Shown piece after piece: positions 23,347 to 40,453 of a DNA stretch of 40,453 bases. The notes beneath the pieces are model-generated. The model ran no database searches. It saw only the letters and a program-made list of their open reading frames with translations, and was not told the origin of the DNA. Source of the stretch: an uncultured Candidatus Saccharibacteria bacterium (lineage in GTDB: Bacteria; Patescibacteriota; Minisyncoccia; Phycocordibacterales; PALSA-1337); the NCBI GenBank assembly GCA_964459225.1, contig CAYWKB010000003.1, forward strand, positions 1-40,453, in the 5' to 3' direction. The position numbers and the translations under genes were made by a program. Positions within the stretch are counted from its first letter, which is position 1. Every line of letters begins with the position of its first letter.

Positions 23347-23379
23347 GTATTAAATATAGCATGGAATTTAAAAGGGAAA

Positions 23380-23404
23380 GGGGCCATCCAGTTCGGATGA
23401 CCCC
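23380..23404 (-). terminator. Hairpin downstream of the DGR-target-like gene (terminator and/or DGR cis hairpin)
   Basis: Minus strand GGGGTCATCC-GAACT-GGATGGCCCC then TTTCCCTTTT; preceded by a (C/T)TTGA-repeat spacer (23415-23460). Confidence 0.7.
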
Positions 23405-23462
23405 AATTTTGGGAACTCAAGAATCAAATACTCAAAAGATTCAAGAATTCAAGGTGCAAGTA

Positions 23463-24392
23463 TCACTTGTTCTGCGGGGAGAAACCCGACGCAGAACCGT
23501 AGAAGTCGTTCGCATAGTCAACAACGCTCGTGTCGAACCTGAGCTCGTCGTCGCCGAAGTAGAAGATCGGAGACCCCGAGAAGACGCCAACGCCAACGGG
23601 CGAGAATTCATCTCCTGGAGTGTCGATGTAGAGGTCGTCGTAGTGTTCAAGACGATTGGGATGCGTGAGAAGCATGGAACCGACAGCGAAAGTGCCGAGA
23701 CCAGCTTCACCTGCAGTATCCCCAATAATGACACGAGCACGACGGACGGAACGTCCACGATGGCGAATGCCGAACTGGGCAGGCACGAGGAGGATATCGG
23801 CGTCGCCTTGCGCTTCCGCAAGGTTCTTCCAGAAGTCCTCGCTCTTTGCCGACTGGCGGAGGTGCTTCTCATCAATCGCGCCGTCGCGATAATTGTAGAA
23901 GCGACCCTTGCGGGTTTCCGATAGGGTGTTGAGGATTTTCTGCACCGCCGAGCTGTAGATCGAACCGAAAATCTTCGGATTCTTCTTCCAGTTCGGAATG
24001 GCAAACCATCCTTCGGCGTTCTCGGGGAGCTTGGCTTCGCCTTTTTCGATCTGTGTGAGCAGTTCTTGATTGGCGTAGCCGAGACCCGAGAACAATTCGC
24101 GCAGACGATTGGTCTGTTCAACAATCCCCAAGGGCTTGTAGCCCGAAAGGTAACCGTAGCTCGATTCGACTTCTTCATCACTATATTCATGGCGATGGCG
24201 GTGCTCCTCAATAAACTCTGCGAGGAGATCACCTGCGCCCGCAGCTTCATTTACGCGTTGGGCTTCGTCCTCAGAGAGGCCGGCCTTGTTATAGGCGGCT
24301 TCGAGAATGGACATGAACTGCAATCCTTTCGGATCGCGGACGGTGACTTTGGCTGAACTAACAACTGCAACTGACGGCTCCAATGTTTTCAT
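23463..24392 (-). CDS. Probable DGR target protein with a C-terminal CLec-like variable region
   Basis: GC-rich gene; C-terminus GDEFSP...FYFGDDELRFDTSVVDYANDFYGSASGFSPQ resembles CPR DGR targets; ATG at 24392 follows an AAGGA RBS (alternative start 24401). Confidence 0.75.
   Translation of the reverse strand: MKTLEPSVAVVSSAKVTVRDPKGLQFMSILEAAYNKAGLSEDEAQRVNEAAGAGDLLAEFIEEHRHRHEYSDEEVESSYGYLSGYKPLGIVEQTNRLRELFSGLGYANQELLTQIEKGEAKLPENAEGWFAIPNWKKNPKIFGSIYSSAVQKILNTLSETRKGRFYNYRDGAIDEKHLRQSAKSEDFWKNLAEAQGDADILLVPAQFGIRHRGRSVRRARVIIGDTAGEAGLGTFAVGSMLLTHPNRLEHYDDLYIDTPGDEFSPVGVGVFSGSPIFYFGDDELRFDTSVVDYANDFYGSASGFSPQNK
23472..23615 (-). repeat. Putative variable region (VR); boundaries approximate
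   Basis: 3'-terminal ~47 codons dominated by NNC/NNT codons (GTT GGC GTT GGC GTC TTC...), as expected of mutated AAC/AAT sites; no cognate TR in the window. Confidence 0.55.
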
Positions 24393-24472
24393 CGGCTCCA
24401 TCCTTTCTTTTGTTATGCCAGATGCGCTCCAGCAGGTTGCGAGAGTGATATTTCGTTTTCAACTCTATATGG

Positions 24473-24501
24473 ATTATAACATAATATATAGTAAAATGCA
24501 A
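24473..24501 (-). promoter_or_regulatory. Strong sigma70 promoter of the DGR-target-like gene
   Basis: TTGCAT (24501-24496) - 17 nt - TATAAT (24478-24473), with an extended TGn. Confidence 0.8.
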
Positions 24502-38619: not shown

Positions 38620-39609
38620 TCATGAATCAGTAATTTTCTTTTTTAACTTCCAGCCGTTGCCATGACTTAAAAGACCAAGATACGACTCGACAACTTCCGG
38701 CTTTTCTTGAGAATCTTTGATTTTCTTGAACATACGATTTTTTGTCGTTGTCCGTATCACTCGATGATATGGAAAATGAACCCAGCCAAGGAAATCTACA
38801 CCCGACGAAGATGTCTTAATAAACACTTTGTCTGGATGAAGAGATAATTTTAATTGCTCACTGAGAAAGCCCTGAACCTTAGGTAAGATTTCCATCAACG
38901 AATCTTTATTGTGTTGCATAATGACGAAGTCATCGGCATACCGAATATAATATTTAGCTTTGAGCTTGTGCTTTACAAACTGGTCAAATTCATTCATGTA
39001 AATATTTACCAAGAGTTGCGAGGTCAGGTTACCTAAAGGCAAACCCTTACCTGGACCAGTACTTTGAAAACTCTCAACAATGCGTTCAACAAGCCAGATC
39101 GTTTCCATATCATTAATATGTCGCTTGAATATTTCAATAAGCTTTTCATGATCAATAGATGCAAAAAACTTTCTAACATCACATTTCAGGACCCAGCATG
39201 CCCTGCTATTACTTTTTGACACTTTCATAACGAAATCATTGAATCGATTTAACGCACGATGTGTTCCTTTAAATTGTCGACAGGAGTAGGAATCATAAAT
39301 AAACTTTTTATCAAAATAGGGATATAAAATCCTGTAAATAGCATGGTGCAATAATCTATCTCGGACCGTAGCCTTGTGAATACTTCTCGGTTTCGGATCA
39401 CTTATCGAAAAAGCTTCGTATGCACCATGTCTATACATTTTTGTTCGCAGTTCCTCATGCAATTTGAAGATACTATGAGAGAGATTCAGAGAAAATTCAG
39501 CAACGTCCTTTTTAGATTTCTTGCCACATATAAATTCGGTCCACGCATCGCATAGATTTTTGATGGATATGATATTCTTATACTCATGACCCATACTAAT
39601 AAGGATCAT
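38620..39609 (-). CDS. DGR-type reverse transcriptase
   Basis: VRDRLLHHA, KCDVRKFFASIDH, GLPLGNLTSQ, YIRYADDF, GVDFLG; uninterrupted; in-frame starts at GTG 39636, ATG 39609 and ATG 39594. Confidence 0.95.
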   Translation of the reverse strand: MILISMGHEYKNIISIKNLCDAWTEFICGKKSKKDVAEFSLNLSHSIFKLHEELRTKMYRHGAYEAFSISDPKPRSIHKATVRDRLLHHAIYRILYPYFDKKFIYDSYSCRQFKGTHRALNRFNDFVMKVSKSNSRACWVLKCDVRKFFASIDHEKLIEIFKRHINDMETIWLVERIVESFQSTGPGKGLPLGNLTSQLLVNIYMNEFDQFVKHKLKAKYYIRYADDFVIMQHNKDSLMEILPKVQGFLSEQLKLSLHPDKVFIKTSSSGVDFLGWVHFPYHRVIRTTTKNRMFKKIKDSQEKPEVVESYLGLLSHGNGWKLKKKITDS

Positions 39610-39980
39610 ATTACCCCCCCCCCCGAGAATTACCACAGGTAATTCTCAAATCGAAAGAGACATATCGTTTTTGGCTCTCTATCTATCGTGATTTTCCGAA
39701 AGTCGAGCGGTATGGAATTGGAAACAAAATTGAACAGGCTTTTCTTGATGTACTTGAATACACATTCTGTCTTTCTTATCTCCCGCCTGAACACAAAATA
39801 CCGATATTGAACAAAGCCATCACAAAACTTGATATTGTGAAGTTCTTTGTGCAACTCGCATGGGAAAGTAAAATTATTCCAACTGATACATACTCGGACT
39901 TAATCGGAAGACTTGAGGAAATAGGGCGACAACTTGGTGGTTGGAAGAAGGGTTTGCAAGCAAAAACTCCCCGACCTTAA
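39586..39980 (+). CDS. avd: Avd-like DGR accessory protein (four-helix bundle), absent from the ORF track; the only plausible ATG is out of frame across a C11 tract
   Basis: Frame 39603-39980 reads ...PPPRELPQVILKSKETYRFWLSIYRDFPKVERYGIGNKIEQAFLDVLE...LDIVKFFVQLAWE...LEEIGRQLGGWKK...*; FPKxERYxIG and EIGRQLGGW are Avd/bAvd-like; ATG 39586 would join this frame with C12 or C9. Confidence 0.85.
39614..39624 (+). repeat. C11 homopolymer (G11 on the TR/RT strand)
   Basis: tta-ccccccccccc-gag read directly. Confidence 0.9.
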
Positions 39981-39999: not shown

Positions 40000-40122
40000 G
40001 TTTCGAGAGAACACCTGGTTGCCATCATCCCACCTGTTCGGGTTATCGACGGAGTTCGCATTGACGTTCCAGCCGTCGTCGTTCCAGTTCACGTTGACCG
40101 CGCGAAGCACCCCAGCGTTATC
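40000..40122 (-). repeat. DGR template repeat (TR) core; boundaries approximate
   Basis: 41 codons DNAGVLRAVNVNWNDDGWNVNANSVDNPNRWDDGNQVFSRN, 11 of them Asn (10 AAC, 1 AAT); GC-rich; next to avd and RT. Confidence 0.88.
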
Positions 40123-40343
40123 GTATACAAGATCATCTATATCACCGCCAGCCAAACCATGACCAGCTGAATTTTATCCGGGACATCAAAGTCCACTAAT
40201 CTCATATACCAATTCTTGTTATTTTTTTGAAGAGACTTTCCCCACTCTCACACAAGGCATACCCAGTGTGACTCTCGAGAAAAATATCCTAAGACCATGA
40301 CGTGAAAGCCGTAACCGTCACGTAACACATGATTTCGGAAATA

Positions 40344-40352
40344 AGTATAACA
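40344..40352 (-). promoter_or_regulatory. Extended -10 promoter candidate for the TR RNA
   Basis: TGTTATACT just downstream of the 40375-40410 terminator; no clear -35. Confidence 0.5.
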
Positions 40353-40368
40353 AGAGAAATTTAAATAT

Positions 40369-40410
40369 AAAAAATTGACCCCCAATCCGCCGAAGCAGAC
40401 TGAGGGTCAA
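40369..40410 (-). terminator. Strong intrinsic terminator of a gene ending at or beyond the right edge
   Basis: TTGACCCTCAGTCTGC-TTCG-GCGGATTGGGGGTCAA (16-bp stem, 3 G-U pairs, cUUCGg loop) followed by T6. Confidence 0.85.
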
Positions 40411-40453
40411 AGAATCCAAGGAACAAAGGATCAGGCTTGCGCCGGAGCCGAAG

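Follow-up and report, generated by a model that had tools for sequence, protein, structure and literature searches.

Among the DGR variable proteins whose structures have been solved, Mtd of Bordetella phage BPP-1 and TvpA of Treponema denticola, both with a C-type-lectin fold, provide the first point of comparison for the gene studied here. In BPP-1, the IMH and an inverted repeat distinguish the acceptor from the donor (PMC5758913). The DGRs of the Patescibacteria (CPR) have been described as 'DGR clade 2' (Roux et al. 2021, PMC8144416), and elsewhere as a 'CPR set' with the unclassified VR classes UVR1-6 (Wu et al. 2018, PMC5758913). In cyanobacteria, variable-protein paralogues that are dispersed and retain mere remnants of TR homology have been read as the result of removal of the diversifier after selection of a variant (PMC7517822), and all3226 of Nostoc PCC 7120, a variable-protein homologue situated away from any RT, has been read as variant fixation (Vallota-Eastman et al. 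2020, PMC7517822).

The gene presented here is found in a stretch of 40,453 nt, the whole of which was analysed and is referred to below as the window. It is probably an orphan, i.e. a copy, left without a TR, of a gene for a Patescibacteria DGR variable protein, with a VR that has become frozen. An orphaned DGR variable-protein paralogue is of a kind that is already known, and the gene adds a member to it. The gene resembles the Mtd and TvpA systems in that its VR corresponds to the last ~130 nt, and in that its homologues are paired with a TR from which they differ at adenines alone; with BPP-1 it shares a GC-rich VR end and a downstream inverted repeat (PMC5758913). In contrast, there is no sequence or Pfam similarity to Mtd or TvpA, and the fold match covers 44-48 residues at E > 1. 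Unlike in BPP-1, the hairpin of the window gene lies ~60 nt past the VR, behind a TTGA-repeat spacer, and is followed by a terminator-like T-run. The family also differs from BPP-1 and TvpA in that its TRs have a hairpin after them as well, and the copy in the window is without a TR.

With the DGRs of the Patescibacteria the family has in common the host lineage, the cassette, a usually single adjacent target, and targets without recognisable domains (UVR1-6 being compared by description), whereas the copy in the window lies outside any cassette. It shares with Nostoc all3226 the position away from the RT, but belongs to another protein family and phylum, and its genome keeps an apparently active DGR of another TR type. 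The results at the level of the family, i.e. its identity, its acceptor-side module and its anomalous composition, are possibly worth more than the orphan itself.

The gene and its flanking elements

A preliminary description of this region had reported a stand-alone GC-rich gene with a consensus promoter, followed by a TTGA-repeat spacer and a GC hairpin. The following elements could be identified on the minus strand (coordinates are those of the window):

23370..23404, minus strand: GC hairpin GGGGTCATCC-GAACT-GGATGGCCCC, then TTTCCCTTTT (from the sequence and the family flanks)
23405..23462, minus strand: spacer of 58 nt with five TTGA (YTTGA/CTTGR repeats with a period of ~8 nt; from the family-wide repeats)
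23463..24401, minus strand: CDS of 312 aa, member of the Patescibacteria DGR variable-protein family (from the ORF, homology, composition and AF2 model)
23472..23603, minus strand: VR-equivalent segment, residues 267-310, SPVGVGVFSGSPIFYFGDDELRFDTSVVDYANDFYGSASGFSPQ (from homologous TR/VR pairs and adenine-specific substitutions relative to the family TR)
24402..24466, minus strand: putative 5' UTR with a small conserved stem-loop and the Shine-Dalgarno sequence AAAGAAAGG (from a family scan and MFE prediction)
24473..24501, minus strand: promoter-like site with -35 TTGCAT (24501-24496), a 17-nt spacer and extended -10 TGTTATAAT (24481-24473), as read from the sequence

The CDS is the single minus-strand ORF within 23380-24501 and forms a sharp compositional island, as its GC content per 100 nt is 0.50-0.59, compared to 0.25-0.36 outside. 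Over its full length the ORF has a GC content of 0.55 and a GC3 of 0.63, while the whole window is at ~0.34 and the gene flanks are at 0.35 (~30% in the AT-rich flanks). The gene looks functional, since the ORF, which ends in ...SPIFYFGDDELRFDTSVVDYANDFYGSASGFSPQNK, is intact, all 27 family-invariant residues are kept, and the AF2 model of the product has a high confidence (pLDDT 88.5). A second ATG, at 24392, may be the true start of the gene. The spacer and the hairpin were found as had been described, and are common to most family members.

The promoter could be substantiated in part. The -10 hexamer TATAAT at 24478-24473 is preceded by TG and constitutes a perfect match to an extended -10, but the -35 hexamer TTGCAT is weak, with only 3/6 consensus matches, for which reason the gene's own promoter is absent from the list produced by a consensus promoter scan. 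The homology with the nearest relative of the gene (locus L085, see below) starts at 24466, just 3' of the promoter-like site, as would be expected for a start of transcription at about this position.

The stem-loop in the 5' UTR (24434-24416, TGCTGG-AGCGCAT-CTGGCA) coincides with the predicted MFE stem. In a crude scan, of which a few matches are weak or spurious, a stem around an (A/G)GCGAAT-like loop was found upstream of 39 out of 84 family genes; the stem sequences themselves vary among loci (e.g. L039, L046, L038 and L072). Rfam gave no match on the locus at E <= 1, the 5'-UTR stem-loop included. On the whole window, Rfam identified two tRNAs and nothing else. The genes neighbouring the CDS are of an accessory type (SOUL, DUF5677 and NYN).

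A family of DGR variable proteins

No significant match to the gene product was found in Pfam, NCBIfam, PADLOC or PHROGs, and no match was found in the PDB, either by sequence or by profile. More than 1,600 homologues of ~300 aa could be identified, mostly in Patescibacteria, with 53-83% identity over 98-100% of the length; the named homologues carry the label hypothetical protein, Patescibacteria. An exhaustive profile search of a library clustered at 50% yielded 1,920 clusters; those listed were close relatives alone, with no bridge to an annotated family. Among 52 family members, no match to Pfam CLec or FGE domains was found; weak matches to SASA in 12 of these members (best E = 6e-4) were judged untrustworthy.

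The first homologous locus inspected (L001) has the gene directly adjoining genes for bAvd (PF22296) and RT. A set of 80 species-representative loci was fetched and searched with the family protein and with the window RT. In 35 of these 80 loci a ~131-nt TR could be identified at ~400 nt from the gene end, as a short stretch that matches residues ~267-310 for a second time, and 30 of the 35 have an avd-RT pair after the TR, with the RT ~420 nt further on. The cassette in the family loci has the order target, TR, short hairpin, opposite-strand avd, and RT. When the TR/VR pairs were aligned without gaps over ~131 nt with an adenine-tolerant score, nearly all mismatches were located at TR adenines (18/18 in L030, 20/20 in L047, 29/29 in L059 and 23/23 in L028). 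A direct adenine-tolerant scan revealed three additional TRs that had been missed by tblastn. At the nucleotide level there is striking conservation among the 35 TRs, with a core that reads TTCAACTTCAACGACGAC...GACAATGC.AACGACAACTA, and the C-terminus of the proteins is moderately conserved among the homologues.

Because TR/VR pairs with adenine-only differences are present beside avd-RT, the family consists of bona fide DGR variable proteins. The gene in the window belongs to this family of ~300-aa proteins by full-length homology and by the TR/VR pairs of its relatives. As a consequence, ~1,900 clusters (50% level) of Patescibacteria proteins, all labelled hypothetical, can now be named as DGR variable proteins.

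Predicted structure of the gene product

The AF2 model of the gene product, built with 52 homologues (mean pLDDT 88.5, pTM 0.82), has a helical N-terminal part, an alpha/beta middle part, and C-terminal strands at residues 276-283, 286-293 and 301-307 that carry the VR. The AAC, AAG and AAT codons of the family TR correspond to residues 281, 283, 286, 288, 292, 296, 298 and 300. In the model these variable residues would alternate along a beta-hairpin, as expected if they are to occupy one exposed face.

The best Foldseek matches in the PDB were TvpA (2y3c), the FGE-type proteins 2q17 and 6muj, and PvdO (5hha), albeit at non-significant scores (E = 1.4-4.4, probability ~0.1, 44-52 columns); neither the PDB nor BFVD gave a match at E <= 0.001. 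The model holds a hint that the VR-bearing element may be C-type-lectin-like. A signal peptide or membrane segment is not obvious in the sequence. We infer that the product is a binding protein with a specificity surface that was set by a DGR and is now fixed, and that ligands would be bound through the VR surface.

Adenine-specific substitutions in the VR

The segment 23472-23603 is exactly that covered by the TR/VR pairs of the homologues, and it aligns in register with the family TRs. The VR-like 3' end of the preliminary description is thereby corroborated, as a TR for this very segment is present in 35 related loci. The substitutions in the segment were compared with the archetype of the family TR, using only those columns that show a conservation of 90% or more among the TRs. 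Mismatches were found in 12 out of 24 adenine columns, but in just 1 out of 43 columns with another base (Fisher p = 4.7e-6). AAC codons of the family TR have changed to TAC, GGC, AGC and TTC, AAG codons to GAG, AGG and CAG, and AAT to TAT, and the third base is retained in every altered TR-adenine codon. Since ordinary divergence should alter third codon bases too, the pattern can be read as the product of adenine-specific mutagenesis. Both this scar and the DGR-target nature of its homologues bear out the earlier designation of the gene as DGR-target-like.

A TR from which the VR could have been written was not found in the 40-kb window, the best adenine-tolerant score being 12, compared to 64-119 for true TRs. 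The gene is present in four bioreactor metagenome runs, of which SRR14271367, SRR14271372 and SRR14271373 contain the RT too; all runs retrieved were of DNA. In all four assemblies the gene is on one contig of 11,972 nt with 0 differences, at a depth of 10-107x, and the assembly of its VR is unbroken and free of variant contigs, unlike that of the VRs of the resident DGR; this applies to variation as judged from assembler contigs, in which rare VR variants are dropped, and to a genome that is unclosed. None of the four assemblies contains a TR-like contig on the VR at 80% likeness or more, and a copy of the VR differing at A positions alone, which the preliminary description had envisaged, was found neither there nor in the window. 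Two scans of JGI metagenome contigs with the adenine-free 3' core of the VR gave no match.

The resident DGR

A DGR of another TR type resides at the end of the window, with the following elements:

38620..39636, minus strand: reverse transcriptase of the resident DGR (RVT_1, E = 1.9e-27)
39621..39980, plus strand: avd-like frame between TR and RT, ending in ...EEIGRQLGGWKKGLQAKTPRP (from its arrangement, which is as for bAvd in L001 and for the antisense CDS after the family TRs)
40004..40114, minus strand: core of the resident TR, of another sequence type (...VNVNWNDDGWNVNANSVDNPNRWDDGNQVF; from adenine-only variant contigs in the source metagenomes)
40379..40453, minus strand: last 20 nt of the target, TGA stop at 40433-40431, CTTKG-repeat spacer to 40407, and hairpin at 40406-40379 (from the sequence and a minor contig junction)

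The resident RT and the RTs beside the family TRs share 39-56% identity; the gene of the resident RT has a GC3 of 0.37. The adjacent target of the resident DGR has its own spacer and hairpin after the stop (40433-40379), akin to the module of the family. Its VR ends ~12 nt past the end of the window, and within the window no VR for the resident TR was found.

The resident DGR provides a positive control for the detection of VRs in the assemblies. Two full-depth contigs of 136 nt cover 40004-40114 with 19 and 21 differences, all of them at T on the plus strand, i.e. at adenines of the TR strand, and the VR copies recovered for the resident TR have 81-83% identity. The resident DGR has at least two full-depth VRs. 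A minor contig at 7x consists of a VR variant, then 53 nt, then 40411-40356, and differs at TR-strand adenines alone; the assemblies break at ~40428. From this variant and the break in the assemblies, the resident DGR seems to be active.

The resident TR was considered as a decayed partner of the VR of the gene, and rejected as such. In the codon register of the preliminary description, the two sequences mismatch at 13 out of 25 adenine columns (52%) and at 37 out of 68 other columns (54%), which confirms the many non-A differences noted at that time. A free local alignment of the gene VR with the resident TR has a score of 10, compared to 8.6 +/- 1.2 for shuffles, and an alignment at the protein level is no better than shuffles. 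As the alignment scores are at the level of shuffles, the VR at 23472-23603 and the resident TR are unrelated. The genome therefore contains a DGR-type RT with Avd, though with a TR unrelated to this VR, and a cognate TR could be identified in neither the window nor the four assemblies, with the control being positive.

Proposed origin and present state of the probable orphan copy

We propose the following course of events. In members of the family, the last ~131 nt (the VR) would be periodically overwritten by DGR-RT cDNA from a nearby TR, with errors at template adenines alone, leading to randomisation of ~8-13 residues; as modelled by AF2 for the window protein, these residues are on the C-terminal beta-hairpin and the next strand. 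The VR of the window copy would have been written by a DGR in this way at some past time. The matching TR would since have gone, and the resident DGR, 14 kb off, is of another TR type and has its own targets. As the matching TR is absent and the resident TR has no usable homology, the VR would now be frozen. The orphan may have arisen either because the transcription unit was dispersed or transferred alone, or because the cassette was lost. At present the gene retains its own promoter-like site, 5'-UTR stem-loop and 3' module, and is most likely expressed as a binding protein of fixed specificity. Of the possibilities raised in the preliminary description, a frozen target left after loss or swap of its TR is the best supported, with no cognate TR, a single invariant contig, and a positive control.

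Of the non-redundant loci, 43 extend for 3 kb or more to either side of the gene; a TR is present in 27 of these and absent from 16. About one third of the well-flanked copies are without a TR, as judged from flanks of 3-10 kb. In L001, the 3' end of the gene continues as the TR-type flank CCGAAGTCTCTCC, to which avd is joined directly; no spacer, hairpin or TR is left, and the RT is split. Such a layout is what a deletion by VR x TR recombination would leave. The window copy has its VR-type flank intact. Its nearest relative, L085, has 83% identity at the amino acid level and 81% at the nucleotide level, and the homology is confined to 24466-23400, i.e. from the presumed start of transcription to the end of the spacer, with unrelated flanks. 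Because the homology covers this stretch alone, it suggests that the transcription unit was dispersed or imported by itself, although a cassette may have been lost instead. Two ways in which diversification stops, by cassette dispersal or loss (window) and by VR x TR deletion (L001), can thus be compared.

A frozen VR is also the end state if the gene alone was imported recently from a DGR-bearing Patescibacterium and has never been diversified in its present host, a scenario that we consider quite possible, albeit not the probable one. The GC content of 0.55 and GC3 of 0.63, compared to 0.35 for the flanks and a GC3 of 0.37 for the RT gene, are in line with such an import, as are the restriction of the L085 homology (81% nt) to 24466-23400 between unrelated flanks and the accessory-type neighbours (SOUL, DUF5677 and NYN). 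However, the high GC is shared by all of the family, whatever the host; every member is GC-rich relative to its host, so composition cannot date a transfer and was set aside as a sign of a recent one. Moreover, neither mobility genes nor flanking repeats were seen around the gene.

Continued diversification of the gene as an active remote target is very unlikely. It would require a second, family-type TR elsewhere in the genome or on a co-resident element, served in trans by the resident Avd-RT, much as the preliminary description had suggested. The complete spacer and hairpin that go with active VRs are retained, the resident RT has 39-56% identity with the RTs serving the family and a similar organisation, and other DGRs are known to have non-adjacent or remote targets (PMC5758913). 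Nevertheless, four assemblies with depths up to 107x, in which the control does find the resident VRs, yielded no TR-like contig, and the VR is unbroken and without variant contigs in the four samples, again different from the resident VRs; a second TR family is therefore unsupported. At the other extreme, the gene could be an ordinary conserved gene, unrelated to DGRs, in which the resemblance to a VR is due to chance. Such a gene might well be without a Pfam or CLec domain and without a significant structural match, and have a moderately conserved C-terminus among its homologues, but it would not explain the TR/VR pairs with adenine-only differences on the exact segment in 35 homologous loci, nor the adenine-only pattern of the window VR relative to the TR archetype (p = 4.7e-6), and we regard this explanation as refuted. 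The orphan copy with a frozen VR that we favour would imply that one cell has both a frozen and a live hypervariable surface, which offers a natural contrast.

The 3' module and the composition of the family

The hairpin of the window gene has a stem of 10-11 bp (23404-23380) with a T-rich run after it, and the conserved 3' module of spacer, hairpin and T-run extends from 23462 to 23370. In the family, at least four YTYGR repeats are present within 80 nt of the stop in 63 out of 84 genes, and a hairpin of at least 7 bp in 80 out of 84 flanks (median stem 12 bp, median start 64 nt past the stop), with a T-run after the hairpin in 73 flanks. The spacer is absent after the TR in 34 of the 35 loci, the exception being L014. 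Since TRs precede a different sequence (with L014 as the exception), the module distinguishes the acceptor (VR) from the donor (TR), and it may be an acceptor signal for cDNA homing. The hairpin with its T-run looks like an intrinsic terminator in its anatomy. Spacer, hairpin and 5'-UTR stem-loop are candidates for a role in target recognition or regulation, and DGR homing is poorly understood beyond phage BPP-1.

The high GC content of the window gene is found family-wide, with a mean GC3 of 0.72 compared to 0.42 for the adjacent RT, and the GC3 of the family tracks host GC weakly (r = 0.40). Avoidance of adenine on the coding strand was rejected as the cause of the high GC, as A is depleted in the 3' 400 nt alone and the excess is mainly in C3 and G3. 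A more speculative view, which we think improbable, is that the module represents a clade-specific acceptor signal, and that TR-less copies are standby acceptors to be re-armed once a compatible TR arrives. If true, the GC3 excess of the family would reflect target transcription units that circulate among hosts independently of the RT. As a minor observation, the hairpin stem in the family is often a perfect DnaA-box 9-mer.

Resident DGR

The diversity-generating retroelement (DGR) resident in the window, which is of another template repeat (TR) type than the family under study, was compared with contigs of the source metagenomes. When these contigs were aligned with its TR, at least two variable regions (VRs) were found at full depth; the stretch concerned covers window positions 40004-40453 and continues beyond the window end. 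The two full-depth copies differ from the TR at 19 and 21 positions, respectively, every one of them a TR-strand adenine. A third VR variant is present at 7x depth in the source metagenomes, and its presence suggests that the resident DGR is active. The contig breakpoint at this DGR lies at about 40428, and the VR of the adjacent resident target ends about 12 nt past the window end. The features concerned are:

39621-39980, + strand, avd-like frame, open for about 118 codons
40433-40431, stop codon of the target gene adjacent to the resident DGR

In the avd-like frame, ATG, GTG and TTG codons are all absent before position 39807. Judging from the sequence, either an unusual start codon would be used, or the 5' part of the frame would be untranslated.

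Composition of target and RT genes

A high GC content marks the target gene in every host, both in the window (23463-24401, compared with the RT gene at 38620-39636) and in all fetched loci. Mean GC3 is 0.72 for the target versus 0.42 for the RT gene of the same locus, and the target has the higher value in each of the 38 pairs, the excess being chiefly due to C3 and G3. Host GC correlates only weakly with the GC3 of the target (r = 0.40) but strongly with that of the RT gene (r = 0.78).

Elements flanking the family genes

A small stem-loop with an (A/G)GCGAAT-like loop occurs in 5' untranslated regions of the family (24416-24434 in the window), about 25 nt upstream of the Shine-Dalgarno sequence. 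It was detected in 39 of 84 family genes by a crude scan, in which a few matches look weak or spurious. The stem sequences vary by locus (e.g. GTTAG/CTAAC, GCGAG/CTCGC and GTCAG/CTGAC), and no match was found in Rfam. This stem-loop may represent a regulatory element.

In the 3' flanks of family genes (fetched loci L005-L085), the hairpin behind the TTGA spacer frequently has GGGKTATCCACA as its stem. A perfect copy of the DnaA-box 9-mer TTATCCACA was found in 16 of 84 such flanks, against about 0.4 expected. These represent 16 of 42 exact DnaA boxes in all 1.26 Mb of fetched sequence, and none of the remaining 26 is located within such a hairpin. In the window copy (23380-23462) the DnaA-like box is degenerate (TCATCCGAA).

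Variation of the cassettes among family loci

Eight of 39 RT genes adjoining family members (loci L001, L005, L010, L037, L040, L042, L048 and L061) contain a (GA)6-17 tract, in all cases at the same position, immediately upstream of the G[IL]P[IL]GNLTSQ motif. Seven of these eight RT genes change reading frame exactly at the tract, which could act as a slipped-strand switch turning the DGR on and off. No such tract is present in the window RT (38620-39636).

The homologue P0006 (L001:8760-9320; also L002-L004 and L006) has a 3' end with a TR-type flank (CCGAAGTCTCTCC...) abutting avd; spacer, hairpin and TR are absent, and the RT is split. From its layout, this arrangement looks like a deletion by VR x TR recombination, through which the target would have become frozen.

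Four well-flanked loci (L014, L036, L055 and L071) have kept a TR with no RT detected, and in L036 TR/VR mismatches at non-adenine positions are already building up. Two family genes lie side by side in four other loci: in L042 and L058 the copies are in tandem with an RT behind them, and a TR was also detected in L058; L064 has two copies without DGR parts; and in L015 the pair is convergent, with an RT fragment in between.
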